Shown: positions 1-36,527 of the stretch, piece by piece
Layout: every line of letters starts with the position of its first letter
How positions within the stretch are numbered: the stretch's first letter is position 1
NCBI GenBank assembly: GCA_902783515.1
Contig: CACZRK010000170.1
Coordinates: forward strand, 1 to 36,527
Reading direction: 5' to 3'
DNA from: an uncultured Coriobacteriaceae bacterium
GTDB lineage: Bacteria; Actinomycetota; Coriobacteriia; Coriobacteriales; UMGS124
Length of the DNA stretch: 36,527 nucleotides
Made by a program: the position numbers and the translations under genes
The notes under the pieces: generated by a model
What the model saw: the letters and a program-made list of their open reading frames with translations, nothing else
The model's database searches: none
What the model was told of the DNA's origin: nothing

Positions 1-1232
1 GCCAGCGTGTCCGCAGGCACGCCCATTGCCTCGGCAAGTTCTTCGAGCGTGTCTGCCGTGACGTAGGCGTCGGCGTGCGCGGTGATGTTGTTCTGGACCG
101 ACTTGGCTATGCAGCGAGCATCGAACGCCTGCTGGTCGAAGATGACCCACCACTCGCGGTAGCCGGCCGCGATCGCGGCTGCCGCGGCGTCGTGGCTCTG
201 ACCCTCCTGGATAAAGCGCTTGCCGTTGGGCAGCACGAGCACGAGCGGGGCCCAGTAGCCCCACGTCGTCGCGTTGGGGATGTCGCCCATCAGGTTACAG
301 TAGGTGGTTGAGGAGTCCATGCCCATGATCATTGCGCCAGCAGCCGCCGCCATGGCGTGGCCCTCGCCCATGCAGCCGTGCACGAGCTGGCCGTATGGCG
401 AGAAGTCGGGCACGTACTTCGCGACCATCTCGCCGTTGTCGGCGAAACCGCCGGTCGCAAGCACGACGGCGCCGGCCTTGATGTCCACGGCGTTCCCGTC
501 CTCGTCGCGGAAGCGGCAGCCGATCACCGCGCCGTCGGGGGCATCCTTGATGAGCGCCGTTGCACGCAGGCCGTAGTCAAACTCACAGCCCATCCGTTCG
601 AGCTTCGCCTGCAACGGTGCGAGGATGTACTCGTAGCCCGTGCCGATGCCCTCGCCGGGCAGGATGACCGTGGAGGCGAGGCGCGGCATCTCGTCGTCGG
701 TCGGCGGCTCTTGGAACGTGCAACCGAAGTCGTTGATGGCGCTGTCAACGAAGGCGGTGTTGGCGTACGTCTTGCCCTTGACCCAGTCGGGGTACCAGGC
801 GTACTGGTCAAAGCCACCCACGAGCTTGTCCCTGGACGCCTCCCAGTACTGGTCGATCGTCATCTGCTTGCCGGCGCCCAGCTGCAGCTCGGTGCCGTTG
901 GCGAACATGAACCAGCAGGAGAAGGCGGAGTCGCCGCCGAACGTGTCCTTCTTCTCGGCGAAGATGACAGACTTGCCCGCCTTCGCCGGCTCCATGGCGG
1001 CGGCGAGCCCGGAGAGGCCGGTTCCCACAATGAGGACGTCCGCCTCCTTGGTGAAGCTCACGGCGGCGTCGCCCACCGCGACGCCCGCGGTCGCCTCCGC
1101 GGCACCTGCGGTCGCCGTGCCGACGACGCCGGCCGCCGCGCCGCCGGCGACGAGGCAGGTGCCTCCCAGCTTGACGAGGTCCCTGCGCGTGAGCTGGCCG
1201 ATCTCGCGGTCGTGCTGCGTGCTGCTCTGCAT
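1..1232 (-). CDS. Tat-signal FAD-dependent reductase (fumarate/urocanate-reductase-like flavoprotein); C-terminus lies beyond the left window edge
   Basis: Absent from the ORF track because it runs off the edge. My own reverse-strand translation from ATG (comp. 1230-1232) gives MQSSTQHDREIGQLTRRDLVKLGG (twin-arginine motif), then DVLIVGTGLSGLAAA (GxGxxG FAD fold) and VVLATGGFADN. GGGGA lies 5 nt upstream of the ATG. Confidence 0.85.
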   Translation of the reverse strand, partial: MQSSTQHDREIGQLTRRDLVKLGGTCLVAGGAAAGVVGTATAGAAEATAGVAVGDAAVSFTKEADVLIVGTGLSGLAAAMEPAKAGKSVIFAEKKDTFGGDSAFSCWFMFANGTELQLGAGKQMTIDQYWEASRDKLVGGFDQYAWYPDWVKGKTYANTAFVDSAINDFGCTFQEPPTDDEMPRLASTVILPGEGIGTGYEYILAPLQAKLERMGCEFDYGLRATALIKDAPDGAVIGCRFRDEDGNAVDIKAGAVVLATGGFADNGEMVAKYVPDFSPYGQLVHGCMGEGHAMAAAAGAMIMGMDSSTTYCNLMGDIPNATTWGYWAPLVLVLPNGKRFIQEGQSHDAAAAAIAAGYREWWVIFDQQAFDARCIAKSVQNNITAHADAYVTADTLEELAEAMGVPADTL

Positions 1233-1266
1233 GATGTCCCCAATCCCCCGGTCTTGACCTGTGCGT

Positions 1267-1307
1267 GTTGCGGCCCGCCGGCGCGATGTGGCGCCGGGCG
1301 CCGCAAC
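1267..1307. promoter_or_regulatory. GC-rich interrupted palindrome in the divergent reductase/LuxR control region
   Basis: GTTGCGGC-CCG-CCGGCGC-GATGTG-GCGCCGG-GC-GCCGCAAC. The 8-bp outer arms and 7-bp inner arms are exact reverse complements. It lies 35 nt upstream of the reductase ATG at 1232. Confidence 0.35.
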
Positions 1308-1540
1308 GAGTCCGCGCGTCGTGTTCTCGCGCGGTTCCTCCCCGACGTCCGACGGGCGTCGACGGCATGCCGTATCATAGGGACCACCGCCGCGCAGTAC
1401 CTCACCGACATTCAATGAGACGCGCTGTTATCGCAGGTACAGAGGTAAAAACGGAACTCGTCTACACCACGGGCCACACGGTGTTCCGGCGGGGTGCGAC
1501 GGCTGCGGGGAATTCACGGACGATCGCGGGAGGGTGCGAC

Positions 1541-3199
1541 ATGCCATTGCGGCTCACGGGGACGGACGCTCGTTGCCTGAATCTCGCTGGTTCGCGCACC
1601 GCGCCGCTCGCCGTCGAGCCTCTCGGGCGCGGGCGGGCGGCGCTGCTCGTCATTGGATACGGCTGCTACCATGCCGCGAGCTCTGCCGGCTACCTGTCGG
1701 CGATGGGAACGGTGGAGTCGAGCGTGGGATTCGTCTCGTCGCTGGCGTTCATGATCGCGAACTGCGCTGCCGGCATCGTCGCGCCGACGCTGGTTGCGCT
1801 GTGCGCGGCTCATTTCGCGCGGCGTCCGAACCGCATGCTTTCCGGTATGGGTCACGTGCTCCTACTTGTGGCTGTCCTGGTCGGCGCGTTCCCTCTGAGT
1901 GTTGCTCCCGATGGAGTCCGCGTCGCGCTCGGCGTCATGCGCGGGGTCGGCGCGTCCCTCGCCGCCATCGCGTGGGTCGCCCTGTACGTCGCTCATGCAC
2001 GCGAGCGGCTGCTCCCGCTCTTCCTGACGATGTTCGCGCTTGATGGCGCCCTGGGAATCGTCTTGGGGGCGCTGCCGCCGGGCGCGGTCCGAGGTGCCGC
2101 CGTCGGGGCTCTGCTTGCCGTCTCGTGCGGATGCGCTCTTGCTCTGCCGTCGTCGCCGCGCTCGCGGCCATCGTCGCGCCCGCGGTCGCGAGCGACGGGC
2201 CGCGCTGTCCGCGACCTGCTCGCCGACGCGTCCGTTCGTCGTCTCGCCAGCGCCTGGCTCTGCTTCCTCGTCGCGCATTTCATCGTGGGGCTCGTGAACA
2301 CGGCAGTGTTTACCTCGGGCCTCACGGCTGCGCTCGCAAGCGTGAACGTCAGCCTTGCCATTCTCGGCGCGACCGTGCTCGTGGCCGTCGCGTCGCTGCC
2401 CGCCCATCGCGCGCCCAACCCCGAGGCGACGTTCGTGGTCGCGATGCCGATCATGCTCGTCGTGTTCACCCTCATGTCGTTCATGACGGATCGGCTCGGA
2501 GCCGTTGCGGGCTATGCGGTCGTCGGGAGCTATGAGGCCATGGCGATGTGCTTCTCGATTTTCTTTGTCGCGTTCCTGCGTGACGGCGAACACGACGTGT
2601 ATCTCTGCGATGGGATCATGGCTGCCGTCTCGAACGCCACGCTGCTGCTCGGCCTCGTAATGGGCGCGTGGCTGAATGCGCTGTGCAGCAGAAGCGGCGT
2701 GCCGCTGCTGACGCTGCTGGCGTTCGCGGCCATCTACCCCGTCGGCATCGCCCTGCTCCTGCTGCAGCGCAGCCGCATTCGCGACCGTGAGCGTGTCGAG
2801 CGAGAACGCCTCGTGAGCGAGATGCGCGAGGAGCAGGCGCGGCATGTCGACGAGGCCGTGCGCCAGTCCACTCGGGTCCTTCGCGAGCGCGGCGTCGACG
2901 CGTTCGCGTCGCGCCATGGCCTTACGCGTCGTGAGACGCAGGTGTGTGACCTGCTGACGCGCGGATATACGGCGAAGTCGGTCGCCGAGACACTCGGCGT
3001 GACTGACAACACCGCCTGGACGCACATCCGCAGCGTCTACCTCAAGTGCGGCGTCTCCGGACGGCAGGCGCTGATTGGCGCGTTCGAGGGGTTCATGGGC
3101 GACGATGGTGCGCCAACGACGTCCGACGGCCCGGCGGTTCTTGGGGCGTCGAGCAAACGCGGGACGTCCGGTGACGCCGACGGCGGCGCCCCCAGGTGA
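1541..3199 (+). CDS. Polytopic-membrane LuxR-family regulator (about 12 hydrophobic segments plus C-terminal LuxR/GerE HTH)
   Basis: Track ORF 1265-3199. I moved the start to the in-frame ATG 1541 (GGGAGG 7 nt upstream). The C-terminus reads LTRRETQVCDLLTRGYTAKSVAETLGVTDNTAWTHIRSVYLKCGV. The preceding ~450 aa are almost entirely hydrophobic stretches. Confidence 0.85.
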   Translation: MPLRLTGTDARCLNLAGSRTAPLAVEPLGRGRAALLVIGYGCYHAASSAGYLSAMGTVESSVGFVSSLAFMIANCAAGIVAPTLVALCAAHFARRPNRMLSGMGHVLLLVAVLVGAFPLSVAPDGVRVALGVMRGVGASLAAIAWVALYVAHARERLLPLFLTMFALDGALGIVLGALPPGAVRGAAVGALLAVSCGCALALPSSPRSRPSSRPRSRATGRAVRDLLADASVRRLASAWLCFLVAHFIVGLVNTAVFTSGLTAALASVNVSLAILGATVLVAVASLPAHRAPNPEATFVVAMPIMLVVFTLMSFMTDRLGAVAGYAVVGSYEAMAMCFSIFFVAFLRDGEHDVYLCDGIMAAVSNATLLLGLVMGAWLNALCSRSGVPLLTLLAFAAIYPVGIALLLLQRSRIRDRERVERERLVSEMREEQARHVDEAVRQSTRVLRERGVDAFASRHGLTRRETQVCDLLTRGYTAKSVAETLGVTDNTAWTHIRSVYLKCGVSGRQALIGAFEGFMGDDGAPTTSDGPAVLGASSKRGTSGDADGGAPR

Positions 3200-3253
3200 C
3201 GGTGGGCCGTCGCGAGCGACTAGCATGTGGTTGGCCCACGGGGCGGTCGTTCG

Positions 3254-3535
3254 TCAACCCCTGCGCACCTCGTCCACCATCGCGAACAGCTCGTTGCGCG
3301 TGTGGATGCCGAGCTTCTGGTAGACGTGGCGCACATGCGCCTTGGCAGTGCCGTTTGCCACACAGAGCTCGCGCTGGATGTCGCTCGCCGTCATGTGCCG
3401 CGCGAGGGGCAGCAACACCTCTTCCTCACGTCGCGAGAGGTTGTGAGAGATGCGCTGTCTGTCGGCGGACGATGACGAGATTGCGATGGAATCCTGTCGG
3501 TGATACAGCGAAATACGCGCAACGCTCTCGTCTCG
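3254..3535 (-). pseudogene. Orphan LuxR-type HTH remnant (about 93 codons, no usable start codon, no membrane domain)
   Basis: My reverse-strand translation between TGA (comp. 3536-3538) and the stop (comp. 3254-3256) reads LSRREEEVLLPLARHMTASDIQRELCVANGTAKAHVRHVYQKLGIHTRNELFAMVDEVRRG. The only ATG lies inside the HTH, and there is no in-frame GTG or TTG upstream. The flanking DNA switches to low G+C at about 3540. Confidence 0.7.
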
Positions 3536-4224: not shown

Positions 4225-5124
4225 ATGGGGGCGCGTATGGGAAATGCTACGCAATCGCCATCGGAGAGTGCTCGCAATAAGACCTACACGATCGGGGCGC
4301 TCCAAGAGACATTTGGTGTTTCTCGGAACACGTTGCTGTATTACGAGAAAGCAGGCATTGTCACGCCAGCGGTCGATTCCAACAACGGTTACCGAACATA
4401 TACCAATGACGATGTCTTTCGTCTATTTGAGAGCGTGGCCATGCGCAATGTGGGCCTAACGCTCGACGAATCGCGGGAGCTACTTGCGAGCTCAAGTATC
4501 AGTGCCGCAGATCGCCTTGATCGCTGCCTCGATATGTCACATCGTATGCGCAGTTGGCATGAAGCTGCCGAAGAAACTCTAGATGATGTTCGTGCGGTAG
4601 CTCGCGGCGAGAACGATGCTTGTCTTGCGCGTCTTGTTAGCGCGCCACGATGGTACCTCTATTTAACGGATGCTGAAACTGGATATGAAAATTTTTGCTC
4701 GAACAAGTCTCTAGATATCCTTCTTAGAAATTATCCTGTATCTTGTCCAGCAATCCTAATTGATGACGATTTTAATACACATGAGCATATCCAGCCGCGC
4801 TGGGGAAGGGCGATTGAGTCCGATCGTGCGGGCTTATTGCCCGAACCAGTTGACGTGGACGCATCAGATGCGGAGCTCGGTGGATGCTCGTGTGTCACGC
4901 TCGCATATGTGACGCGCTGCGCCGATGTGCCCGGCTTTGACCCAGATTATGAAGTTCGCGATTGCGTGCATGCGTTTATTAAGAAATATGGGCTATGCAT
5001 AGACGAAGACAAGCGGGCATTCGCTGTTAACGCATTTCCGGTGCACGGATTCTTTTTTTCGCGCCTATTCGTCCCCGTGCGTGCCCATACCATTCGCGGT
5101 AAGTTCGCGACGCGATGCATTTAA
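4225..5124 (+). CDS. MerR-family transcriptional regulator with a ~190-aa C-terminal putative effector domain
   Basis: YTIGALQETFGVSRNTLLYYEKAGIVTPAVDSNNGYRTYTNDDVFRLFESVAMRNVGLTLDESRELL is a MerR-type HTH plus wing. The alternative start ATG 4237 has GGGGG 6 nt upstream. Confidence 0.85.
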   Translation: MGARMGNATQSPSESARNKTYTIGALQETFGVSRNTLLYYEKAGIVTPAVDSNNGYRTYTNDDVFRLFESVAMRNVGLTLDESRELLASSSISAADRLDRCLDMSHRMRSWHEAAEETLDDVRAVARGENDACLARLVSAPRWYLYLTDAETGYENFCSNKSLDILLRNYPVSCPAILIDDDFNTHEHIQPRWGRAIESDRAGLLPEPVDVDASDAELGGCSCVTLAYVTRCADVPGFDPDYEVRDCVHAFIKKYGLCIDEDKRAFAVNAFPVHGFFFSRLFVPVRAHTIRGKFATRCI

Positions 5125-5308: not shown

Positions 5309-6883
5309 ATGTCTGAGATTACACGTCGCGGGTTTCTTTCGGGCATGGGGACGGCCGCCGCAGTGATGGGGACGAGCAGCGTTGCACTTGCGTCACAACC
5401 CAAGTCGTCGCGGTCGTCGGCAGCTAAGGACTTCGACGAGACATATGACGTTGTTGTCATTGGGGATGGGTTTGCTGGCAATACCGCCGCTCTGTTTGCC
5501 GCGAAGGCCGGTGCAAAGGTTCTCATCCTCGAGAAGGCTGATGAGGGCGCTCGCGGAGGAAACTCACGTGTCTGCGGTCAGATGATGCTATATGCGCATG
5601 ACTATGATGCATGTGTTAAGTACCTTACCGCGCTACAGGGTGAGATGAATCATGATGATGAATATATTTCAGCATATGCTGATGGCATAACCAATCTAAA
5701 GGATATCCTCTCAGAATTCGGTATTGATAACCCAGTAGAGTGGCATGCCCTCATTGAGGACAACGAAGAGACGGCCAAGAAGACGGGCATCAAGATGCTC
5801 GCGGGCATTATGGCTCCGGAGTATCCGGAGTTCCCAGGATCCGATCAGATGGACGCCATGTGTGCGCACGAAGGGGTCTTTGACTCATATTTCTACCAGA
5901 CGGTTGCTCAGACGGTTGACTCCCTGGAAAACGTGACCGTCGCGTTTCAAACGCCGGCGAAGCATCTTATCCAAGATCCTGAAACGAAGGCGATAGTGGG
6001 CGTCATCGCCGAGAGAGATGGGGCTGAAGTTCGCTACGGCGCCACGTCCGGCGTCGTTATGGCTTGCGGTGGATTTGAATGCAACAAGGACATGATTGAG
6101 AACTTCATCGGCTGCTCCTATATCGGTCATGTAGGCGGTGACTACAACACTGGGGATGGCATCAAGATGGCCCAGGAGGTAGGAGCCGACTTCTGGCATC
6201 TCACCAGCTACGAGGGCGGCGGACTGGTCGGTGGCCTGTCTTGGAGGGTGCCCGAGGGAGACCGTGCGCCGTTTATTCTGGGGTTCGGATCAGTCAAGAA
6301 GGGTGCCATCTTCATCGTCGCCGATGACGGGACGCGCTATTTCAACGAGGTTCAAACTTCACGTCACGGCAAGATTAACTTCCATGGTATTTATCGCGCC
6401 CCGAACACCTCTATTCATCCGTGGATGATCTTCGATCAGTCCCAGTATGACGCCTTCGATCAGAAGGGCGGTATCCTCCCTGACGACGCGAGCATCATTG
6501 TTACGGGAGAGACCATAGAAGAGATCGCGGAGAAGACAGGCATAGATCCCGAGAAGCTTGCCGATACCTATGCGCGCTTTAATGAGTATGCACAGACAGG
6601 CGAGGACAGGGACTACGGCCGTGCGGCCGAAAGCATGGCGCCCTTTGAGGGAACGATCTACGCCATTCCGCTCATCCATGTGATGTTGAACACTCAGGGC
6701 GGTGCACGTCGGAATGCAAAGGCTCAGGTGCTCGATCCAGACGGCAACCCGATTCCCAATCTGTACAGCGCCGGAGAGTTCGGCGGCGTTGCGAGCTTCT
6801 ATTACAACGGCGGTGGCAATGTCGCTGAGTGCCTGACCTTCGGCAAGATTGCCGGCACGAATGCGGCTGGCGGGGACAAGTAG
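5309..6883 (+). CDS. Tat-signal FAD-dependent reductase (fumarate-reductase-like flavoprotein)
   Basis: Track ORF 5279-6883. I moved the start to ATG 5309 (AAGGAGG, 5-nt spacer). MSEITRRGFLSGMGTAAAVMGTSSVALA is the Tat signal, YDVVVIGDGFAGNTAALFAAKAGAKVLILEK is the FAD fold, and the C-terminus has NTQGGARRN and IPNLYSAGEFGG. Confidence 0.9.
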   Translation: MSEITRRGFLSGMGTAAAVMGTSSVALASQPKSSRSSAAKDFDETYDVVVIGDGFAGNTAALFAAKAGAKVLILEKADEGARGGNSRVCGQMMLYAHDYDACVKYLTALQGEMNHDDEYISAYADGITNLKDILSEFGIDNPVEWHALIEDNEETAKKTGIKMLAGIMAPEYPEFPGSDQMDAMCAHEGVFDSYFYQTVAQTVDSLENVTVAFQTPAKHLIQDPETKAIVGVIAERDGAEVRYGATSGVVMACGGFECNKDMIENFIGCSYIGHVGGDYNTGDGIKMAQEVGADFWHLTSYEGGGLVGGLSWRVPEGDRAPFILGFGSVKKGAIFIVADDGTRYFNEVQTSRHGKINFHGIYRAPNTSIHPWMIFDQSQYDAFDQKGGILPDDASIIVTGETIEEIAEKTGIDPEKLADTYARFNEYAQTGEDRDYGRAAESMAPFEGTIYAIPLIHVMLNTQGGARRNAKAQVLDPDGNPIPNLYSAGEFGGVASFYYNGGGNVAECLTFGKIAGTNAAGGDK

Positions 6884-6997: not shown

Positions 6998-7137
6998 CAA
7001 TTCACAGGACTGGGATTGCACGCCGCCGTTTCAGGGCGTTTCGCCACGACCCGAGCTATCGACCTTTCCAATCCGGCCGGCACTATGTTACCCGTGGCGG
7101 CGCTGACATCGCATGCTGCCTTTATCGATGCGCGATA

Positions 7138-7782
7138 CTATTTTGCAAGGTAATCCGATGCGCTCAGTGCTGCAATTCGACCAGAGTTAATTGCCCATGA
7201 AGCGCCGGATCCGGCGGCGATGCCAGCATCGTATACGTCGCCATAGAAGCCACCCGTATCTCAACCGCCTGCAAAAAGGCCGGGAATGACCATATCATCG
7301 GCTGTGAGCACGTTTGTGAGCGCGTTCACCTTCAGGCCACCGCAAGTCGTGAAGTATGCGTCCTGGCAGTCGAATGCGTAGTACGGGCCATCATCATCGG
7401 TCATGGCGATCATGTAGTCGCTCGGCGTGTGGAAGTCCTCGTCAAAGCCCTCATCGCAGAAGCCGTTGTACTTCTCGAATGTTGCCTGCAACGCATCCGC
7501 GTCAAGTCCGGAAGCCGCGGCGAGATCGGCAATGGTGTCGGCCTTTACGGCGTGACCATTACCGGATGCGAGGAGCCCCTCGACCTCTTCCTTTAGGCCC
7601 GTGAGCTTCTGTCCGGCTGCGACCCAGACCCCGATGCCCGTCAGAGCACCGTCGCCCGTCTCAAACCGATCAAGCAAGGCCTGGGTGAAAATCGCCCATA
7701 CCTTTTTTTGCTTGCGCATGGCGCAGCCCGCGAACGGGAAGTTCTTGAGAAACATGTCCTTGCAAATGCAGCGACGCTGCAC
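7138..7782 (-). pseudogene. Decayed C-terminal half of a flavoprotein reductase (in-frame TGA, N-terminal FAD domain deleted)
   Basis: Track ORF 7261-7782 reads VWAIFTQALLDRFE...KADTIADLAAASGLDADALQATFEKYNGFCDEGFDEDFH...GPYYAF...CGGLKVN...IPGLFAGG, then stops at TGA (comp. 7261-7263). The same frame continues as DTGGFYGDVYDAGIAAGSGASWAINSGRIAALSASDYLAK to TAG (comp. 7138-7140). No Tat signal or GxGxxG motif exists between 7782 and the LuxR stop at 7923. Frame-shifted traces may extend to 7861. Confidence 0.75.
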
Positions 7783-9479: not shown

Positions 9480-9599
9480 TCGTCGCTCCCTTGGATCCAG
9501 TCGCATTGCCCTCTCATGGTTACATCTTCGTAGTTCGTCTCGACAGTGGCAATGCTTCCAGCTGTGTCGGCTGCAGTATGGCTGAGCCGCGGCGTGAGA

Positions 9600-9624
9600 G
9601 GCTTTACCCGTTTCGGGTAAAGCC
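9600..9624. promoter_or_regulatory. Perfect 25-nt palindrome in the divergent LuxR/reductase control region (candidate operator)
   Basis: GGCTTTACCCG-TTT-CGGGTAAAGCC. I checked all 11 arm positions base by base. Confidence 0.45.
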
Positions 9625-9792
9625 CGCAAGATCGAATTGAATTACCTGAGACAGGTGTATCGCGTTCGACTGGTTTCTCTCCACGATGAGCATGTCGAGC
9701 CTGCGCACGAGCGGCATGCCGCGTTGCTCGTGGCGGACTTTGAGCGGCATCCGTAATTTGAATGCACGTCCAGGGACAAGGAGGGCTTTTCC

Positions 9793-28119: not shown

Positions 28120-28258
28120 GACCATATACCTCATACGATGGACTGGCAACGATCGTCGGCCACATCGGCGCGCAGACGGCGCGCGGAGCGGCGGGCGGTC
28201 GGGATGGAAGGGGGAGATCGTGGGGAAGAGGGGTACGGACGTGGGCTCTCCGGGGCCC

Positions 28259-29722
28259 ATGAGGGCGAGGCGTCTGGCCGTGGCCGCGACGGTGGCGGCC
28301 ATGGTCGCCGTTGTCGCGTGCCTCGGCGCGCCGAGGGGTGCCGCCGTCGCCGATCGCGTGGCGTCCGCAGCTGAGGGAGACGGCGAGACGGCCCACGCGG
28401 TCGCGATGAGCTCCCTGGACGCGGGGGGCTCCTCCGCCGACGTCGACGCCGCGGCCGACGGGCAGGGCACGACCGACGCGGGCGACGACGACCTCGCGGC
28501 GGCCCGCGAGGCGTATGCCAAGGCGACGCCGCAGGCGAGCGGCACGTGCTACGAGTGTCACGCGAACGAGGACCTGCTGCGAGCGTCGCTGTCCGACAAG
28601 GACGATGACGCCTCCAAATACCTTGTCGACGAGAGCTTCGTCACAAGCACGCACGGCATGCTCGGGTGCACGTACTGTCACGGGGGACATTCGGACGAGA
28701 CTGACGCACGGGCGGCGATGGCAGGCATGAATGCGACGCCGACCGCCGACGGCGGCCAGGCGGTGTGCGGTCGGTGCCACCAAGGGGTGGTCGACACCTT
28801 CAAGACGAGCCTGCACTTCAACACGACCGGCATCAAAAACGCCTGGGACGCACGACTGGCGCCCTCAGAAGAGGCGCTGGGCACTGACCTGTCAGCGCAG
28901 TACTACCATCACGACGGGTATGACGGCGCCTGCATCGATTGCCACGCGACATGTGGCGAATGCCACGTGCGCAGCGCCAAGGACGCCATCGACCCCGACG
29001 CCGGGCTCACGAGGGGGCACGACTTCGTCGATCTGACCGACAACGCCGACATCACGTACACGTGTCTCTCATGCCATGCCGGGTCGATCGCGGGCTGCTT
29101 CACCGACTATGACGTGCACGGGCCCTCCGGGGCGAACATGAACTGCATGGACTGCCACAACATAGGGGAGATTCATGGCGACGGCACGAGCTATCAGACG
29201 ATGTCGCATTCCGGGGCCATCACGACCGAATGTACCGACTGCCATGACGCCTCCTCGCTTTCGGGAGAATGGCATTCCGACACGCACCTTGCCAAAAACG
29301 AGTGCTGGGCGTGCCACACGAGCACCTACCGCACATGCACCTCGTGCCATGGATGGGCTGCCGAAACGCGAGGGGACGTGCCGATCGAGATGAGCGAGCA
29401 GTGCTTCCTTGGCTATGACGCGGCTGATGGCAAGATCACGACGCTCGCAAAGGCGCCGGTGGACGAGGGGATGCTTGGCGACGTCTCTGACCTCGCGTTG
29501 GATGACGACCTTCTCAACGCTGGTAGCACCTGGTATCCCGCGTTCACGCACGGTGTGATCGTTCCGCAGCCAGACCAAGACTTTTGCGATCGCTGCCACG
29601 GTGCGGGAACCGCGTTGCTTGACGAGGATGACCTCCAGTATCCGGATTGGGAGAAAGGCCAGGTTGTGGGGAGTCTGCCTGAGGTATGCGCGAGTGACTA
29701 TGGCGGGCAGGCCGCGTCCTGA
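28259..29722 (+). CDS. Undecahaem c-type cytochrome with an N-terminal signal/anchor (lipobox-like VVAC)
   Basis: Track ORF 27755-29722. I moved the start to ATG 28259; an in-frame GTG at 28220 is an alternative. There are eleven CxxCH motifs: CYECH, CTYCH, CGRCH, CIDCH, CGECH, CLSCH, CMDCH, CTDCH, CWACH, CTSCH and CDRCH. The N-terminus reads MRARRLAVAATVAAMVAVVACLGAP. Confidence 0.9.
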   Translation: MRARRLAVAATVAAMVAVVACLGAPRGAAVADRVASAAEGDGETAHAVAMSSLDAGGSSADVDAAADGQGTTDAGDDDLAAAREAYAKATPQASGTCYECHANEDLLRASLSDKDDDASKYLVDESFVTSTHGMLGCTYCHGGHSDETDARAAMAGMNATPTADGGQAVCGRCHQGVVDTFKTSLHFNTTGIKNAWDARLAPSEEALGTDLSAQYYHHDGYDGACIDCHATCGECHVRSAKDAIDPDAGLTRGHDFVDLTDNADITYTCLSCHAGSIAGCFTDYDVHGPSGANMNCMDCHNIGEIHGDGTSYQTMSHSGAITTECTDCHDASSLSGEWHSDTHLAKNECWACHTSTYRTCTSCHGWAAETRGDVPIEMSEQCFLGYDAADGKITTLAKAPVDEGMLGDVSDLALDDDLLNAGSTWYPAFTHGVIVPQPDQDFCDRCHGAGTALLDEDDLQYPDWEKGQVVGSLPEVCASDYGGQAAS

Positions 29723-30028: not shown

Positions 30029-30047
30029 GATACCATGCTATGGTATC
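30029..30047. promoter_or_regulatory. Palindromic candidate operator of the toxin-antitoxin operon
   Basis: GATACCAT-GCT-ATGGTATC has 8-bp perfect arms. It ends 29 nt upstream of the antitoxin ATG and is followed by TATCAT (30048-30053). Confidence 0.55.
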
Positions 30048-30075
30048 TATCATACAACCGAAAGGAGGGTTGCCC

Positions 30076-30471
30076 ATGCCTGCTGCCTCAATGGCGGGTG
30101 GTGCGCCGAAGAGCGTGCAGATGAACGTCCGGCTTGATCGCGAGGACAAGCGGCGCGGTGACGCGGCGCTTGCGGCCATGGGCTTCACGCCGACCCAGGC
30201 GGTGAAGTCGCTGTGGGCGCTTGCGGCCGGTGACGCGAAGGATCTTGACTTCGTGAGCGAGCTGCTGCGTCGCGGCCGAGACCGGCAGCTCGCGACGGCG
30301 AGCGACGGGACGACGGGCGAGGCCGACGACGTGCTCGCCCGTGGGTGGGCGCTGTACGAGGATGCCTGCAAGGAGGTCGGCGTCAGCGGGGGCGCGGATC
30401 ACGGGCGCGCCGACGACGAGCTTCTCGAGCAGGCGCTGCTCGACAGGTACGGCGAGGGGCGTGCGTCATGA
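30076..30471 (+). CDS. RelB/DinJ-family (ribbon-helix-helix) antitoxin
   Basis: Track ORF 30040-30471. ATG 30076 has AGGAGGG 5 nt upstream. VQMNVRLDREDKRRGDAALAAMGFTPTQAVKSLWALAA fits the DinJ/RelB N-terminal pattern. The stop overlaps the next start (ATGA at 30468-30471). Confidence 0.7.
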   Translation: MPAASMAGGAPKSVQMNVRLDREDKRRGDAALAAMGFTPTQAVKSLWALAAGDAKDLDFVSELLRRGRDRQLATASDGTTGEADDVLARGWALYEDACKEVGVSGGADHGRADDELLEQALLDRYGEGRAS

Positions 30472-30962
30472 GCGGGAATCAGGAGTGCATCGTCATCGAC
30501 ACGAACGTCTGGCTTGACAACTACATCCCGCATCGCGCGGGGCATGCGGACGCGCAGCGGCTTCTCGCGTGCGCGCGTTCCTGCGACGTCCAGCTCCTGT
30601 ACGCCGTGGAGAGCGTCAAGGACGTCTTCTACGTGATCGCCGCCGACTTCAAGGCGACGGTGAGGGCACAGGCCGGTCACGTCGGGGACGCCGAGGAGGC
30701 GGTCGCCCAGCAGCTCGCATGGTCGTGCGTCGAGAACATGCGGACGCTTGCCAACGCGATCGGCGCGGACGAGTCAGACGTCTGGCTTGCCGCGAAGTAC
30801 CGCTCGCTGCACGGCGACCTTGAGGACAACCTGGTGCTTGCGGCGACGAAGCGCGCCGGCGCGGACTACCTCGTCACGGGTGACCGCGCCTTCATCGAGA
30901 AGGCCACCGTGCCCGCGCTGACGCCGCGTGACTGGCTGGTGCTGCACGAGGCCGAGCGCTAG
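30468..30962 (+). CDS. PIN-domain (VapC-like) toxin
   Basis: Track ORF 30345-30962. I moved the start to ATG 30468, which overlaps the antitoxin stop by 4 nt. The sequence has IVIDTNVWLD, YAVESVKDV, LEDNLVLAAT and DYLVTGD, which give the four acidic PIN positions in the expected order. Confidence 0.8.
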   Translation: MSGNQECIVIDTNVWLDNYIPHRAGHADAQRLLACARSCDVQLLYAVESVKDVFYVIAADFKATVRAQAGHVGDAEEAVAQQLAWSCVENMRTLANAIGADESDVWLAAKYRSLHGDLEDNLVLAATKRAGADYLVTGDRAFIEKATVPALTPRDWLVLHEAER

Positions 30963-31623: not shown

Positions 31624-31977
31624 CACGGGTGGAAACTGTCCGGCCAGCTTGACGCCTACAACGCTGCGTGCGACGCAGGCGAGGATGCGGACTTCGGCAA
31701 GGATGCGAAGTATCTCGTCAAGATGGACAAGGCGCCGTACTACGCCGTGCTCGCATACTCGTTCATCAGCGCGATCTCGGGCGGGATCAAGACGGATGCG
31801 GATTTCGCGGTCACCCGCGCGGATGGCTCGGAGACCCCCGGTCTCTATGCGGTGGGCATTGCGAGCAGCCGCGAGTTCTGGGGGGACTACTATCCCGGCG
31901 CCCTCGCGATCACGCTCTGCACGCACGGTGGGTTCGTTGCCGGGCGGAACGCGGCGGCGTATGCGCTGGGGAAGTAG
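31624..31977 (+). pseudogene. C-terminal ~117-codon remnant of a flavoprotein reductase
   Basis: The frame opens right after TGA (31621-31623) and reads HGWKLSGQLDAYNAACDAGEDADFGKDAKYLVKMDKAPYYAVLAYSFISAISGGIKTDADFAVTRADGSETPGLYAVGIASSREFWGDYYPGALAITLCTHGGFVAGRNAAAYALGK. This matches the C-terminal motifs of the intact paralogs (YNxxCxxGxDxDFGK, PYYA, PGLYA.G). No Tat signal or FAD fold lies upstream. Confidence 0.8.
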
Positions 31978-32115: not shown

Positions 32116-33705
32116 CTAGCCTTCGTCTCGCCGTTCCCGGTCGATAAGCTCGATGAGCTCCTGCCTGCTGTGCACGCCGAGTTTGACGTAGACGTTCTTG
32201 CAGTGGAACCGCACGGTGTTGGGCGAGACGCCCATGTACTCCGCAGCTGCGGGGATGCTCCGCCCGCTCATGAGCATGCTCACGACCTCGCGCTCACGTT
32301 CCGTAAGACCATGCGCCTGCGCGATTGGTCCAAGGGAGCTCTGTCGGGCCGTGTTGCGCGACTCGGTGTCATCAGGAGACGCCAGCTCGGATTCCCACGA
32401 GTAGACTCGTCTCGTGTCCTGCGCAGTCTGGAAGCGGTCGGAGAACACGTATGCGGCGAACATGACTAGCACGCTCGCGAGTGAGCTTGGGAGCGTGGCG
32501 AAGGCGGTCCCCTCAAGGTCCACGCCGCTGTTGGCCAGCGCATTGAAGGGAATTGCCGGCAGATAGCGCATAGAGTAGATGATCCCGAACGACAGCGCGT
32601 ACATGGCGACGGGCGAGATCAGATAGTGCCGCGAGACTTGGTTACACGCGAGGATCCCCATCATTGACGCGACGGAGAAGATCGTGTAGAGGGCAAACGA
32701 GAGCGCATAGCCATAGCCGACGCCGAGAAAGGGGAGCAGCGCGCAGGCCAGCCCAATGCCGGGTGCGGCGACCCTGTAGAAAATGCCCATGTCCAGGTGG
32801 TAGCGATTGCGCTCGAACAGCGCCCAGGTGATTCCCGAGCTTGCGACCAAGGCAAGGCTGTTGAGGTTGCCGACCAGCTCCTCCGAGGCCGGGGTCGCCA
32901 TCGAGAGGCCGAGCCGCACGATCTGCATCACGAACCCTATTGCCCCGATGGTGAGGCAGGGCGCGAGCAGGGCGAGGATGCCCTTGCGCAGATTCCCTCG
33001 GTGCTCTGGGCTGTCGCTTGGGAAACGGACAGTCCCGCCATAGAACGTGACCACGCGCGTCGTGGAGGGGCTTGACGGCTGCCGGGCGTCGTCGCCGGTT
33101 GCCGCCGGGATGAGACGAAACGCGCAAAGCGCGAGAAGCGCGCTTGTGCCAGGGGCAATGACCAGTGCGGCTATTGTCATCACTACCCAGGATGACAGCC
33201 ATGCGAGGAGGAAGTACAGCGCCCCTCCGACGGCGGTGCCGCCGATAATACAACGAGCGTCCATCGGCGTGTTCTGCGAGCAGAGCACGAAGACCCAGAG
33301 GATGAAATTGCCCGCAATGCCGCCACCAACAAGCGTTCCGCCGATGGTGGTATAGAGAAGGCTCGCCCATGATGGCGCCGCAAAGGCCTTTGGGAGACAA
33401 GTTGCCACCGCAAATCCCACGATGAAGGAAAGTGAGGGCGCCCAGTATATCGGGGGGCGCCGGAGGACGGCGTGCATGCGGGGCGATCCCGTTGACGTGA
33501 GCAGAAATACCAAGAGAAAGCAGAGACAGAAGACGAGGTTCTTCGCGATGGTGAACGGCGCCGCGATTTCGCTCGACACGAATGAGGGAGAGGCGCCAGG
33601 CCAGCCAGCGATGGAGACGAGGGCGATGTCCATCCCATAGCCCGCGATCGCCCACGGCAGAAGACGTGTATTGCCTGCTGCCTGGTCCGTCGTCTCGTGA
33701 GGCAT
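32116..33705 (-). CDS. Polytopic-membrane LuxR-family regulator
   Basis: Track ORF 32116-33789. I prefer ATG at comp. 33703-33705 (AAGGGA 9 nt upstream); ATG 33714 is an alternative. The C-terminus reads LTEREREVVSMLMSGRSIPAAAEYMGVSPNTVRFHCKNVYVKLGVHSRQELI. Confidence 0.85.
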   Translation of the reverse strand: MPHETTDQAAGNTRLLPWAIAGYGMDIALVSIAGWPGASPSFVSSEIAAPFTIAKNLVFCLCFLLVFLLTSTGSPRMHAVLRRPPIYWAPSLSFIVGFAVATCLPKAFAAPSWASLLYTTIGGTLVGGGIAGNFILWVFVLCSQNTPMDARCIIGGTAVGGALYFLLAWLSSWVVMTIAALVIAPGTSALLALCAFRLIPAATGDDARQPSSPSTTRVVTFYGGTVRFPSDSPEHRGNLRKGILALLAPCLTIGAIGFVMQIVRLGLSMATPASEELVGNLNSLALVASSGITWALFERNRYHLDMGIFYRVAAPGIGLACALLPFLGVGYGYALSFALYTIFSVASMMGILACNQVSRHYLISPVAMYALSFGIIYSMRYLPAIPFNALANSGVDLEGTAFATLPSSLASVLVMFAAYVFSDRFQTAQDTRRVYSWESELASPDDTESRNTARQSSLGPIAQAHGLTEREREVVSMLMSGRSIPAAAEYMGVSPNTVRFHCKNVYVKLGVHSRQELIELIDRERRDEG

Positions 33706-34034
33706 TAATGTCATTCCCTTCGCCGTGTGCTCTGAAGAGTGTAGTCGAGCGTATCCACTCATGCATCGTACGCTCGTGGCGAGGAGCAAGTTTTGGTATC
33801 GAAGGACCGACTCGAATCTAGGCGGCAGGGCAACGACAATGGCCAGTGGTGACGTCCAATGCCGCAGCGTGAAGGCGGCCGAAGCCTGGCGGGCGGGGGT
33901 TTATATCTACGCGATGTTCCGGCGGACACGAGCGCGCATAGAGCTCTCGAAAAGGGCGACGCAGAAAGGGGTGTCGGCTCTTCGTCCTTGTCATTGGCGC
34001 CCAAGGGCCGCGCGGAACGTCGTCGCAAACAATC

Positions 34035-34071
34035 ACGGCCCACGGGCGGACTTGGCACACCCGTGGGCCGT
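34035..34071 (-). terminator. Terminator hairpin downstream of the 700-aa reductase gene
   Basis: ACGGCCCACGGG-13 nt-CCCGTGGGCCGT is a 12-bp perfect stem that starts 12 nt after the stop codon. On the minus strand it is followed by GATTGTTTG. Confidence 0.65.
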
Positions 34072-34082
34072 CTTCGTACGGT

Positions 34083-36185
34083 CTATGCCTTCACTGCCTG
34101 TTCGAGAGCACGTTTGACCGCCATCTTGATGGCGTTTGACGTGACAGTTGCGCCCGCAACGCCGTCAAGCTTGTAACTCTGCGCTTCCTCGACCTGCTTC
34201 GCGTAGGTGCCGTCCTCGATCGCCTCGTAGCCGCCGATGCCCTTCGTCTCGTTGTTCGGTGAGATGTCGGACACCGCGATGTGGCCGTCCTTGACTTGGA
34301 TCGTGACGTCGATCTCGCCAACGATGCCGTAACCGTAGCCGGTGTACGTCCCATCGGCAAATGCGGCGCCGTCAAGATCCTCGTCGCTCTGCTTTGCCTT
34401 TGCGCTGTCGTCCTGATGACGCTGGATGCCCAGCGACGCGGGCGGCACGTAGTCGGGGTCGGCTGCGATGCCTGACCAGCCACCGGCGAGGTACTTGCCC
34501 GTGAGGTAGCCGAAGGTGATGCAGTTCATGCCGAGGTTGTGCCCCTCAACCAGGAAGTTGTAGCTGTTCGCGAACGCGTCGCCCACCATGGTGCCGATGT
34601 TGAACAGTCCCTCAATGGGGGTGTCGTCATCCTCGCACACCTGCATGTTGATGTTGGTGCGCAGGCCACCGAGGATCGTAAGGAACTTCGGAGCGTCCTT
34701 GCGATAGCCGTAGAATGGTGCGGTACGCACGGGAACGAGCAGCTCGGGACGCTTGTGGAAGTCCTCGTCAACGCCGGCATCGCACAGCTCGTTGTAGCGC
34801 TCGATGGAAGCGATCATGGCGTCGGCGTCGACGCCCATCTGGGAGGCGAGGTCCTCCAGCGTGTCCGCCTTGAACATGCTGCCCGCCTCGACCTTTGCAT
34901 CCCAGGACGCGAGCACCTCGTCCGCCGTCATGTCGCCCTCGCCGTAGACGTTCTTCCAGTTGTGCCACGGCATGTGATGCGAGGGATACTCGGCATCGAA
35001 CACGGCATTGATGGGGCCTTCGTGCTTGATCACGTACGGCAGGTGGCCGACGCCCATGTCCTCGCAGCAGAACCGCTTGCCTGCATCGTTGACCATGATG
35101 GTGTCGGGCGCGTTCCACGGCTGCGAGCATGGCGCGGCGAACGTGGCTGCCATCGCGGCGTTGGGGATCGTGCGCTGCCACGCCGCACCGACCCACAGGC
35201 CCATCTGCTGGCCCCGGCCCTTGTACAGTCCGCCGTAGACCTTGCCGAGCGTGTCGGGCGTCTGCGCCTCGTCCCAGTTGGTGACCCAATCGACGGCCTC
35301 GGGGGCGTAGCGCTCCATCATCTCGCGATTGCCCGAGAAGTCGCCTGTCGCAAGCACGATGCCCGTGGTTCCGACGAACTTGACGTAGTTTCCGTCGGCG
35401 TCGCTGCCGATCACTGCGTCCACGCGTCCGGTCGTTCCATTGGGGACGCCGCCGCGCACCAGCTGCTCAGCATGCGTGTTGAAGTAGAATGTGACGCCTT
35501 GCTCCTCGCAGAGCTTGCGCAGCGCGAAGACGAGAGACGGCTGACCGTCGGCGACGACGGGGAAGTCGTCGTTGTTCCAGCAGTGCGACTCCTCCGGGCC
35601 GAAGAGAGGATAGGTGCGCATGTCATCGGGCCAGACGTTGCTCTGCTCGATGGTGATGCGGATCCCCTCAACCTGGGAGGTGCGGTCAATGAGCCAGTTG
35701 ATGGACTCTTCGGAGTTGTTGTACCACTTGTGCCACTTTGCGACGTCGATGTTGAACGACGCCTGCGCCATCTGAGCCAGTAGGAATCGTTCGTCGATGC
35801 GCGGCAGGCCGTACTCATTCATGATCGTGGAGTACACGACGGCGTTAGATCCGCCGCGGGCGACGACGTTGGGACTTTGGGCGAACACCACGACCTTGAG
35901 CCCACGCTCCGCCGCCGAGAGCGCGCAGCACAGACCGGCGGTGCCGGCACCGACGATGACAACGTCGGCGGTGATCGTCTCGGTGATGTCGGCGTCGGCG
36001 ATCGGGTCCGGCGGCGTCATGAACGACGGGGTGGCATCGTGTGCCGCGGAATCCTTCGCTGCGGATGGCGACTCCGCTGCGAGTGCCGTGCTCGTGCCTG
36101 CCGAGACGATCGTCGCGCCGGCGGCCGTCATCGCGGCGCCCGTGATGAATGACCGGCGGTCCATCTGTGCTCCTGCGTGAGTCAT
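34083..36185 (-). CDS. Tat-signal FAD-dependent reductase with a C-terminal FMN_bind-like domain (700 aa)
   Basis: AGGAGG lies 5 nt upstream of the ATG. MTHAGAQMDRRSFITGAAMTAAGATIVSAGTSTALA is the Tat signal and ADVVIVGAGTAGLCCALSAAERGLKVVVF is the FAD fold. The tail GIVGEIDVTIQVKDGHIAVSDISPNNETKGIGG...LDGVAGATVTSNAIKMAV looks like an FMN_bind module. Confidence 0.9.
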   Translation of the reverse strand: MTHAGAQMDRRSFITGAAMTAAGATIVSAGTSTALAAESPSAAKDSAAHDATPSFMTPPDPIADADITETITADVVIVGAGTAGLCCALSAAERGLKVVVFAQSPNVVARGGSNAVVYSTIMNEYGLPRIDERFLLAQMAQASFNIDVAKWHKWYNNSEESINWLIDRTSQVEGIRITIEQSNVWPDDMRTYPLFGPEESHCWNNDDFPVVADGQPSLVFALRKLCEEQGVTFYFNTHAEQLVRGGVPNGTTGRVDAVIGSDADGNYVKFVGTTGIVLATGDFSGNREMMERYAPEAVDWVTNWDEAQTPDTLGKVYGGLYKGRGQQMGLWVGAAWQRTIPNAAMAATFAAPCSQPWNAPDTIMVNDAGKRFCCEDMGVGHLPYVIKHEGPINAVFDAEYPSHHMPWHNWKNVYGEGDMTADEVLASWDAKVEAGSMFKADTLEDLASQMGVDADAMIASIERYNELCDAGVDEDFHKRPELLVPVRTAPFYGYRKDAPKFLTILGGLRTNINMQVCEDDDTPIEGLFNIGTMVGDAFANSYNFLVEGHNLGMNCITFGYLTGKYLAGGWSGIAADPDYVPPASLGIQRHQDDSAKAKQSDEDLDGAAFADGTYTGYGYGIVGEIDVTIQVKDGHIAVSDISPNNETKGIGGYEAIEDGTYAKQVEEAQSYKLDGVAGATVTSNAIKMAVKRALEQAVKA

Positions 36186-36527
36186 GCATGCCTCCTAGTG
36201 TTCGCATGGTGCGTATCCCGCGTCCGCCTCATGGTTACTGCCCGGACACGGGCGCGCCGTCCCATCGCGAGACGGCTGATCTGAGGGACACGCTATCGGC
36301 ATGCAGCCGGCGGCGGAACACCTTGAGAGTGTGTCGGGCCCGCTCGAACTGCCCACATAAAACGGGTAGGGTGCGTCTCAGAACGTGGGCATTGACGTTG
36401 TAAGCAGGAAAAATGACGAACAGGGAGCATGGGAGGCGAGGAAAGACCAGCTATCTGAAGTCAAGCCCAAGAGGCTGACTTTTCGATAGGGACCTTGAGA
36501 GCCGGATATGGGATAAGGGGCGCGTCA

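Follow-up and report, generated by a model that had tools for sequence, protein, structure and literature searches.

Introduction

The closest described systems are those of Eggerthella lenta and other Eggerthellaceae. E. lenta DSM 2243 encodes 83 transmembrane (TM) LuxR regulators, 50 of them adjoining flavin enzymes (Dong 2022, PMC9734109). The LuxR activators located beside the flavin enzymes have 10-12 TM segments, the identity of TM domains among these regulators is below 20%, and knockouts demonstrated that three TM LuxRs activate the adjacent gene upon exposure to its substrate (PMC9734109). Eggerthellaceae also possess arsenals of substrate-induced, signal-peptide-bearing PF00890 reductases, in which the export signal is associated with respiratory members of the family as opposed to cytosolic, non-respiratory ones (Little et al., bioRxiv 10.1101/2022.12.26.521950). 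As to the cgr locus of E. lenta, Koppel et al. (2018, PMC5953540) describe Cgr2 as a Tat-predicted PF00890 flavoprotein with the LuxR-type regulator Cac3 nearby, frame it as a digoxin-inactivating enzyme, and report that in culture the majority of the cac genes around cgr are transcriptionally silent.

We analysed a contig of 36,527 nucleotides from an uncultured Coriobacteriaceae bacterium (CACZRK010000170.1), which in its entirety is referred to as the window. The initial annotation had likened it to the cgr neighbourhood and to the expanded respiratory flavin-reductase repertoires of some gut anaerobes, which agrees with all three reports cited above. The architecture is already published for Eggerthella-like gut bacteria, and the window is a further example of it, not a new kind of system.

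Results

Reductases with predicted export signals

The window encodes nine flavoproteins (FAD_binding_2 reductases with a putative Tat signal):

1..1232, minus strand: F1, cut by the contig end (508 aa in other assemblies)
5309..6883, plus strand: F2, Tyr at the FccA R545 position
9793..11742, plus strand: F3, with C-terminal FMN_bind; VprA-like best NCBIfam match
11835..13538, plus strand: F4, starts 92 bp after F3; 39% identity to F9
15425..17092, plus strand: F5, inherited with R3 in L030, L031 and L032
17291..19021, minus strand: F6, orthologues 50-75% identical in Firmicutes and other phyla
21091..22719, minus strand: F7, same strand as R5 and 213 bp downstream of it
24677..26503, plus strand: F8, identified by motif and Pfam FAD_binding_2
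34083..36185, minus strand: F9, with C-terminal FMN_bind (motif DGVAGATVTS)

All nine ORFs read through without an internal stop (F1 being truncated), and each begins with a [S/T/D]-R-R-x-[F/L]-[LIVM] motif (TRRGFL, TRRGFV, SRRSFI twice, SRRDFM, TRRNFV, DRRDFI, DRRSFI, and TRRDLV in F1), after which come an uncharged h-region rich in Ala and Gly, with an AxA-type site at its end, and then DVxVxGxGxxG. Since RRx[FL][LIVM] would occur by chance within the first 40 residues at an estimated frequency of about 0.005 per protein, its presence in nine of nine is not a chance effect. Each start is preceded, 5-14 nt upstream, by a purine-rich Shine-Dalgarno-like element. The nine Tat-motif FAD ORFs of the initial annotation were thus borne out, as was the domain content by hmmsearch: FAD_binding_2 in all nine (E 1e-25 to 1e-59), GerE in six regulators, and FMN_bind in F3 and F9 only, with AGAT in place of the canonical [S/T]GA[S/T].

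For F6 and F5, public gene calls give 567 and 535 aa, against 576 and 555 aa for the ORFs of this analysis, and the called starts therefore fall downstream of the RR motif; the longer N-terminus is kept in homologues, together with a Pfam TAT_signal match. Within the window, TAT_signal matches are sub-threshold and confined to F6 and F9. Tat export is a prediction from motif inspection.

The enzymes share 23-39% identity, which is in line with the strong divergence claimed previously; they are old paralogues and not recent duplicates. Membership of the SdhA, FrdA, NadB or KstD families, which the initial annotation had regarded as contrary to its reading, was not found: all NCBIfam scores were below the cutoffs (25-60 bits vs >450 for SdhA/FrdA/NadB; at best 223 vs 789 for KstD). 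The best match of F3 is the vinyl phenol reductase VprA (303 bits vs a cutoff of 600).

By sequence, the closest solved structures are those of Shewanella FccA/UrdA (PDB 1D4C/1QJD, 6T85; E 1e-23 to 1e-34), periplasmic respiratory enzymes with the same FAD and capping-domain scaffold. In contrast to these, the paralogues have no fused haem domain, and the catalytic Arg402 and the carboxylate ligands His504/Arg545 are replaced wherever the position is present: all three are absent from the eight full-length reductases (with Tyr in place of Arg545 in F2, F6 and F7), while in F1 R402 is missing and the 3' truncation cuts the gene off before H504 and R545. The fumarate/urocanate catalytic Arg/His set is therefore kept by no paralogue in which the positions occur. 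Since no NCBIfam cutoff was reached and these residues are missing, we consider that the enzymes are not housekeeping ones. The reductases of Little et al. (E. lenta UrdA, IrdA, CrdC and CrdD) share with them the PF00890 domain, the N-terminal export signal, many diverged paralogues per genome, adjoining transmembrane HTH regulators and an occasional FMN_bind fusion. However, none of the nine keeps the clade-1 (fumarate/urocanate) arginines, and the likeness is one of architecture. No substrate could be assigned to any reductase, as had been anticipated.

Regulators and control regions

Six regulators, five divergent control regions and one terminator were distinguished:

1233..1540: F1/R1 divergent control region, 308 bp
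1541..3199, plus strand: R1, multi-TM LuxR/GerE regulator, 11 hydrophobic segments
7923..9479, minus strand: R2, multi-TM LuxR regulator (GerE, hydrophobicity, model)
9480..9792: R2/F3 divergent control region, 313 bp
13570..13606, plus strand: intrinsic terminator (hairpin, 16-bp stem) between convergent F4 and R3
13612..15189, minus strand: R3, 12-TM LuxR regulator (model: 6+6 MFS-like fold, then HTH)
15190..15424: R3/F5 divergent control region, 235 bp
19022..19304: F6/R4 divergent control region, 283 bp, R4-proximal half nearly invariant relative to L026
19305..20855, plus strand: R4, multi-TM LuxR regulator, inherited with F6 in L026 and L036
22933..24483, minus strand: R5, multi-TM LuxR regulator (GerE, hydrophobicity)
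24484..24676: R5/F8 divergent control region, 193 bp
32116..33714, minus strand: R6, multi-TM LuxR regulator, downstream of F9 and co-directional with it

The coordinates reported earlier for the five intergenic regions are correct for the starts used; no operator motif common to them was found. Nine reductases and six regulators are indeed present, but the number of nine cassettes is too high, since no more than five or six of the reductases possess a TM LuxR of their own. A divergent one adjoins five; of the others, F9 points the same way as R6, F4 comes after F3, F7 lies downstream of R5 and F2 follows a MerR-family gene. The 92-bp gap between F3 and F4 contains no terminator, so these two probably form one operon.

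The claim of six multi-TM proteins with a C-terminal LuxR/GerE HTH also held (E 2e-8 to 1e-16). A crude Kyte-Doolittle scan revealed 8-11 strongly hydrophobic 19-residue segments per protein, and the AlphaFold2 model of R3 (pLDDT 77, pTM 0.69) contains 12 TM helices (6+6) followed by the HTH. R1-R6 can be aligned with one another over the HTH only, in keeping with the TM-domain identity below 20% given in PMC9734109. All 50 top Foldseek PDB matches of the R3 model were MFS transporters (E 2e-5 to 4e-4, TM 0.5-0.65), and the low-confidence R2 model agrees weakly with this fold; the Pfam scan of the window proteins gave no MFS match in the regulators. The sensor domain of R3 is thus predicted to have an MFS-transporter fold, resembling MelB, MdfA and SLC37A2 in its 12 helices (6+6) and central cytoplasmic loop. 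Unlike these transporters, it shows no detectable sequence similarity to the family and is fused to a DNA-binding domain. Transport by this domain would not be required, since the enzymes are predicted to act outside the cell.

The E. lenta regulators DadR, HcdR and CadR (PMC9734109) likewise combine an N-terminal multi-TM part with a C-terminal GerE HTH, adjoin (often divergently) a redox-enzyme gene, and have a conserved HTH and barely alignable TM domains. They control molybdenum catechol dehydroxylases, whereas those of the window adjoin flavin reductases, and an MFS-like fold is absent from the account of E. lenta TM LuxRs in PMC9734109.

Electron input and other genes

The remaining features are as follows:

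3254..3535, minus strand: orphan LuxR HTH without TM domain (54-aa weak GerE gene call in L033-L035)
4225..5124, plus strand: MerR-family regulator, upstream of and co-directional with F2 (pairing kept in L033-L035)
7096..7776, minus strand: pseudogene remnant of a reductase, C-terminal part (about 220 residues), in-frame stop, no N-terminus
26601..28064, minus strand: GntR-family regulator, 487 aa, MocR-type by length and sequence character, divergent from the cytochrome gene
28220..29722, plus strand: stand-alone cytochrome c with 11 CxxCH, N-terminal hydrophobic helix and lipobox-like VVAC
30040..30471, plus strand: putative antitoxin, paired with the PIN_3 toxin
30468..30962, plus strand: PIN_3 toxin (similar toxin-antitoxin pair in the related island L026)
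31633..31962, plus strand: another reductase remnant, C-terminal part (about 110 residues), stop codons upstream

The orphan HTH, the two reductase remnants, the GntR/MocR regulator, the cytochrome c and the PIN toxin-antitoxin pair had been missed previously. The 11-haem cytochrome c is a likely candidate for the electron donor. It belongs to a small separate family, homologues of which occur in other FAD_binding_2 and FAD_binding_2/GerE neighbourhoods. As described in PMC5953540, the cgr locus (Cgr1, Cgr2, Cac3) similarly joins a Tat-predicted PF00890 flavoprotein and a nearby LuxR-type regulator to a multihaem cytochrome c that is anchored in the membrane and has been proposed to donate the electrons. 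That cytochrome, however, resembles NapC/NirT and is co-transcribed with the reductase, whereas the one studied here stands alone beside a MocR-type regulator and is co-transcribed with no reductase; again, the likeness is architectural. Orthologues of F6 in Lachnospiraceae and Christensenellales carry a fused FMN_bind domain, and in Desulfitobacterium a cytochrome c3 gene lies downstream. The electron path is incomplete in the 36.5-kb window, because no quinol dehydrogenase, ApbE flavin transferase or cytochrome-maturation gene was found there.

The flavoproteins might instead be catabolic dehydrogenases or detoxification enzymes (KstD-like desaturases or non-energy-conserving xenobiotic reductases). 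KstD and 3-ketosteroid delta-4 dehydrogenases do fall within FAD_binding_2, KstD models are the best NCBIfam matches of F6, many homologues of which are named "3-oxosteroid 1-dehydrogenase" by JGI, and the Tyr replacements in F2, F6 and F7, like the treatment of Cgr2 in PMC5953540, point in the same direction. We consider this unlikely, given that the KstD scores are far below the cutoff, that all nine proteins carry predicted export signals (a respiratory-type trait according to Little et al.), and that the island contains a multihaem cytochrome and, in two reductases, an extracytosolic FMN_bind electron-input domain.

Dynamics of the island

The orphan HTH is what remains of a seventh regulator. 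In the block from 4.2 to 17 kb, the GC3 of the genes is 0.49-0.73, compared with 0.78-0.91 elsewhere. On the basis of this mosaic and the three remnants, the island has gained and lost cassettes. The remnants, the approximately 1-kb stretches without an identified intact long gene (3200-4224, 6884-7922 and 30963-32115) and the silence of most cac genes near cgr in E. lenta could also mean that much of the island is decaying, its cassettes being unexpressed or non-functional relics kept by drift alone. This is very improbable: apart from the truncated one, the reductase ORFs are intact (524-700 aa) with cofactor motifs, signal peptides and Shine-Dalgarno sites preserved, the orthologues of F5 and F6 are conserved at 73-85% across lineages, and the same array was recovered in the independent metagenome assemblies L033, L034 and L035 (R1 through F2 to F5) and L001 (remnant through R5). 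That the contig is a chimera of paralogous islands from different organisms, as the sharp GC3 shift and a highly paralogous and therefore misassembly-prone family might suggest, can practically be dismissed, since these contigs of other samples bridge both GC3 junctions (L033/L034/L035 and L001).

Homologues of R3 with 65%, 43% and 41% identity are each divergent to an F5 orthologue (85%, 73% and 51%, respectively). Similarly, an R4 orthologue (38%) is divergent to a 75% F6 orthologue in an unrelated neighbourhood (dnaX, ABC transporter), and another (90%) is found in L026, where the adjoining cassettes differ. In both pairs the regulator diverges faster than its enzyme. At least two regulator-enzyme pairs (R3-F5 and R4-F6) thus appear to be inherited as units and to move from one genomic context to another.

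Discussion

The explanation that we favour, with a probability of roughly 80%, is that the whole contig, from a high-GC metagenome-assembled genome that most likely belongs to the Eggerthellaceae (Coriobacteriia), represents an accessory island whose flavin reductases are extracytoplasmic and respiratory-like, with a separate one-component membrane sensor governing each of them; the enzymes are old paralogues, and at least two regulator-enzyme pairs are inherited as units. By analogy with the E. lenta systems, we infer that the genes of the window are inducible and that their products act as reductases.

An external organic electron acceptor would be bound by the 12-TM domain of the cognate LuxR-type regulator; such sensing has genetic proof for the E. 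lenta regulators DadR, HcdR and CadR (PMC9734109). Binding probably takes place in an intramembrane cavity, because the external loops are predicted to be 9 residues or shorter. The membrane-tethered C-terminal HTH would then, judging by homology, activate the adjacent, usually divergent, promoter. The reductase precursor, which carries the twin-arginine motif, would take up FAD in the cytoplasm and leave folded via Tat. In F3 and F9 electrons may enter through the fused FMN_bind domain. The other seven reductases contain neither a haem nor an FMN domain, and their donor would be a separate multihaem cytochrome c, for example the 11-haem protein, as proposed for Cgr1/Cgr2. With these electrons the enzyme, now outside the membrane, would reduce its substrate at the FAD, which may enable the cell to respire with the compound.

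Organization of the island

The six membrane-embedded LuxR regulators (R1-R6) each adjoin a gene for a redox enzyme; five are transcribed divergently from one of the nine reductases (F1-F9) and one is co-directional with its neighbour. We found the five divergent intergenic regions of the initial annotation where it had placed them, at 1233-1540 (F1/R1), 9480-9792 (R2/F3), 15190-15424 (R3/F5), 19022-19304 (F6/R4) and 24484-24676 (R5/F8). A divergent TM-LuxR is thus present for only five of the nine reductases; F9 is co-directional with R6, F4 begins 92 bp after F3, and F7 lies downstream of R5. The gap between F3 and F4 contains no terminator, while F4 and R3 are separated by one with a 16-bp stem (13570-13606); this strong terminator was the only informative result of a promoter and terminator scan of the window. 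Rfam and tRNA scans of the window gave no matches.

Besides a small zinc-ribbon ORF, several genes and gene remnants that the initial annotation had overlooked were identified.

Additional features of the island, in window coordinates
3254-3535, minus strand: orphan LuxR HTH without a TM domain, a regulator remnant
3618-3872, minus strand: 84-aa zinc-ribbon ORF (CLGCGEIF...WACPRY), annotated as HypA-like (PF01155) in contigs L033-L035, which match the window
4225-5124, plus strand: MerR regulator, 5' of F2
7096-7776, minus strand: reductase remnant, C-terminal part with an in-frame stop
26601-28064, minus strand: GntR/MocR-type regulator, one neighbour of the stand-alone cytochrome c
28220-29722, plus strand: stand-alone 11-haem cytochrome c
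30040-30962, plus strand: PIN_3 toxin and upstream putative antitoxin, within the island
31633-31962, plus strand: reductase remnant, C-terminal part

The zinc-ribbon ORF is situated in a low-GC stretch between R1 and the MerR gene, in which no intact long gene was identified. The PIN_3/antitoxin pair may be an island-stabilising module. The related genome L026 has a similar pair (6941-7827) beside its R4 orthologue.

Dynamics of the island

The genes located between 4.2 and 17 kb (MerR, F2, R2, F3, F4, R3 and F5, within the block 3200-17100) have a GC3 of 0.49-0.73, compared with 0.78-0.91 for every gene outside this block, which suggests that the block is younger or foreign. The two C-terminal reductase remnants and the orphan LuxR HTH are evidence that the island has lost cassettes. 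Together, the compositional mosaic and the three remnants indicate gain and loss of cassettes that differ in age or origin. The mosaic is not due to a chimeric assembly, since both compositional junctions are spanned by contigs from other samples (L001, L033-L035). In these spanning contigs F1, which is cut by the end of our contig, has its full length of 508 aa, and the island borders two SNF transporter genes and a gene for FMN_red, a flank that recurs in L026 next to different cassettes.

The reductases

All nine reductase ORFs proved to be real: each translates cleanly and has both an N-terminal [S/T/D]-R-R-x-[F/L]-[LIVM] motif and DVxVxGxGxxG (9/9), and each contains an FAD_binding_2 domain (PF00890) scoring 91-200 bits against a gathering cutoff of 20.4 (E 1e-25 to 1e-59). 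Between the RRx[FL][LIVM] motif and DVxVxGxGxxG, all nine have an uncharged Ala/Gly-rich h-region ending in an AxA-type site, and a purine-rich ribosome-binding element is located 5-14 nt 5' of every RR-containing start. At the level of these motifs the nine enzymes are predicted to be exported; the Pfam TAT_signal model remains sub-threshold for them. In combining an above-cutoff FAD_binding_2 domain with an N-terminal export motif, they resemble the signal-peptide PF00890 reductases of Eggerthellaceae described by Little et al.

The G+C content of the window is 52-71%, and a mechanical ORF list is therefore crowded by spurious frames. For F6 (567 vs 576 aa) and F5 (535 vs 555 aa), public annotation gives shorter genes than the frames read here, so that the annotated starts fall 3' of the twin-arginine motif. 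The two Arg codons of F6 read AGAAGG, which resembles a Shine-Dalgarno site, and the longer form is backed by 576-aa homologues and by homologues with a TAT_signal Pfam match. Automated surveys using the public calls would count both enzymes as lacking a signal peptide.

None of the nine reductases attains any curated NCBIfam cutoff. The closest named model for F3, F5 and F7 is the vinyl phenol reductase VprA, which reaches at best half of its cutoff (for F3), and no substrate could be assigned through an equivalog. The closest solved structures are those of the Shewanella flavocytochrome c fumarate reductase, urocanate reductase and ketosteroid dehydrogenases (E 1e-23 to 1e-34).

Three more specific identities were considered. 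For 3-ketosteroid delta-1-dehydrogenase (KstD), F6 is the best of the nine against the equivalog model, with 223 bits, far below the cutoff of 789; the match to a KstD in the PDB is partial (E 7e-28). To examine membership of the fumarate/urocanate reductase (FccA/UrdA) clade, the enzymes were aligned with residues 125-568 of FccA using MAFFT; HMMER alignments were concordant for F3 and F6. The proton donor Arg402 of FccA is replaced in all nine enzymes, and the carboxylate-binding His504 and Arg545 in the eight that extend that far, and on these residues the identity was rejected. The position of Arg545 is occupied by Y (F2, F6, F7), V (F3, F9), M (F4), L (F5) or I (F8); the tyrosine in three of them agrees with the non-clade-1 enzymes described by Little et al. 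(bioRxiv 10.1101/2022.12.26.521950), in which Tyr stands in place of Arg at the equivalent position. Housekeeping SdhA, FrdA or NadB can be dismissed, with about 25-60 bits against NCBIfam cutoffs of 450-830; the tight clustering with housekeeping clades named in the initial annotation as grounds for refutation was thus not observed.

The strong divergence of the paralogues was confirmed (23-39% identity among the reductases). At this level recent tandem duplication is rejected, and the nine reductases are ancient paralogues.

Membrane-bound LuxR regulators and their predicted fold

A C-terminal GerE/LuxR HTH (PF00196) is present in all six regulators (E 2e-8 to 1e-16), which can be aligned to each other only over about 60 residues of this domain. 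AlphaFold2 models show 12 helices in R3 and about 12 in R2, and Kyte-Doolittle profiles of the six proteins gave 8-11 strongly hydrophobic peaks. Taken together, these profiles and models agree with the 10-12 N-terminal TM helices of the family defined by Dong et al. in 2022 (PMC9734109), whose TM domains share less than 20% identity. In E. lenta these authors counted 83 such proteins, of which 50 have a flavin enzyme as neighbour (Cgr2 and Ber among them), and they demonstrated by knockout and complementation that three TM-LuxRs activate the adjacent gene in response to its substrate.

The R3 model (26-sequence alignment; pLDDT 77, pTM 0.69) consists of two bundles of six TM helices separated by a disordered loop and followed by the HTH. 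The top 50 Foldseek matches in the PDB were all transporters of the major facilitator superfamily (MFS), including SLC37A2, SUC1, MelB, FLVCR, MCT1, VMAT and MdfA (E 2e-5 to 4e-4, TM 0.5-0.65). The R2 model, of lower confidence (pLDDT 68), retrieved almost entirely MFS-type transporters, weakly. No Pfam MFS model (MFS_1 or related) matched any of the six regulators at E <= 0.01. The sensor domain of R3 is described here as having a predicted 12-TM, 6+6 MFS fold. Since the external loops of the model are at most nine residues long, a ligand site within the helical bundle is likelier than one on the loops, and the predicted fold offers a concrete place to look for it. Dong et al. (PMC9734109) make no mention of MFS, transporters or AlphaFold, and a search of the literature on Eggerthella LuxR proteins and the major facilitator superfamily returned only a paper on separate MFS genes; the fold may be noted elsewhere.

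Inheritance of sensor and enzyme as a pair

Two of the five divergent pairs, R3-F5 and R4-F6, were compared with other genomes. Homologues of R3 with 65% (L032), 43% (L030) and 41% (L031) identity are each divergent to an F5 orthologue, with identities of 85%, 73% and 51%, respectively, which far exceed the paralogue level. In L036, where the surrounding genes are unrelated (dnaX, ABC transporter), an F6 orthologue (75%) is divergent to an R4 orthologue (38% over its full length). Conservation of the R4-F6 pair is about 90% in L026, where the neighbouring cassettes are different. Judging by these identities, both pairs behave as heritable units in which the sensor diverges faster than the enzyme. 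Because the two are inherited together, a sensor-promoter pair could be used as a reporter for finding the substrate of the enzyme, as proposed by Dong et al. (PMC9734109).

A search for a shared operator was negative: repeats in the nine upstream or intergenic regions (five divergent and four others) were limited to short GC-rich matches, and a k-mer test allowing one mismatch in seven of these regions gave no clear excess over shuffles, the low-complexity 9-mer CGCCGCCGC alone being common to all seven. Within the F6/R4 intergenic region, the R4-proximal half (19145-19304) is almost invariant relative to L026, whereas the middle (about 19060-19140) has diverged. An imperfect palindrome (19240-19267) and a stretch richer in AT, TATGTATATGCGATTTTGGCGTATCAT, lie in the conserved part, which is a candidate promoter or operator.

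Electron supply

A C-terminal FMN_bind domain (PF04205) was detected only in F3 (40 bits) and F9 (46 bits; cutoff 22). The other seven reductases lack it, and these seven contain no haem or FMN domain. The canonical flavinylation motif of this domain is [S/T]GA[S/T]. In both F3 (VATVAGATMTS) and F9 (DGVAGATVTS) the motif reads AGAT, with the acceptor Thr present and Ala in place of Ser or Thr at the first position.

The stand-alone cytochrome c contains 24 His residues and 11 CxxCH motifs, and its N-terminal helix terminates at a lipobox-like VVAC. Its neighbours are the MocR-type regulator on one side and the toxin-antitoxin pair on the other. It has no close solved structural relative, and its family is small, with 27 matches in an indexed search and, in an exhaustive search among 1.84 billion, 385 representative proteins (one per 50%-identity cluster) at E <= 1e-3, of which 20 were at E <= 1e-30. 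Two homologues were examined for their context, and both are surrounded by other FAD oxidoreductase genes; for one (L029) this is an FAD_binding_2/GerE neighbourhood. By analogy with the Cgr1-to-Cgr2 model (PMC5953540), we infer that this protein is the best candidate electron donor, and it provides a testable candidate for the missing donor of the reductases without a haem or FMN domain. The window contains no gene for a quinol dehydrogenase, ApbE or cytochrome maturation.

In F6 orthologues of Lachnospiraceae and Christensenellales (70-72% identity) an FMN_bind domain is fused to the enzyme, while the Desulfitobacterium orthologue (63%) is flanked by a divergent TetR regulator and, downstream, by a cytochrome c3 gene. 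This shows that the electron-input module is interchangeable. The orthologues of F6 are unusually close across phyla (50-75% in Lachnospiraceae, Christensenellales, Desulfitobacterium, Treponema and Acidobacteria MAGs; loci L006, L007, L008), and its catalytic module is joined to differing regulators, either TetR or TM-LuxR.

Interpretation and significance

The resemblance to the E. lenta cgr neighbourhood and to expanded flavin-reductase repertoires, which the initial annotation had pointed out, is supported: the architecture matches that reported by Dong et al. (PMC9734109) and Little et al. The window is a further instance of this already described architecture. Judging by GC content and by how the families are distributed, it probably derives from a member of the Eggerthellaceae. 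It differs from the cgr locus, in which the reductase is co-transcribed with a NapC/NirT-like cytochrome, whereas here the cytochrome adjoins no reductase. For Cgr2, Koppel et al. (2018; PMC5953540) reported no homologue with more than 28% identity.

A more speculative joint reading, to which we give a probability of about one in three, is that the TM-LuxR sensors are MFS-derived transceptors, which would detect electron acceptors from outside the cell within the transporter cavity and transmit the conformational switch of the MFS fold to the tethered HTH. Sensor and reductase would co-evolve as a mobile unit of two genes, the sensor diverging at two to three times the rate of the enzyme, and the 11-haem lipoprotein cytochrome would act as the common electron hub of the reductases without FMN_bind. 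These three points are absent from the compared publications on such systems. Since the general biology is already established, the findings added here are of incremental value: sensor and enzyme inherited as pairs in which the sensor evolves faster, a predicted MFS fold for the sensor, gene remnants together with a mosaic composition, and an orphan cytochrome with 11 haems.

Islands of this kind determine which molecules from the diet, the host or drugs can be respired, and so chemically altered, by a gut actinobacterium, published examples being digoxin, itaconate, cinnamates and resveratrol. To this set the contig contributes nine orphan reductases and six orphan sensors.
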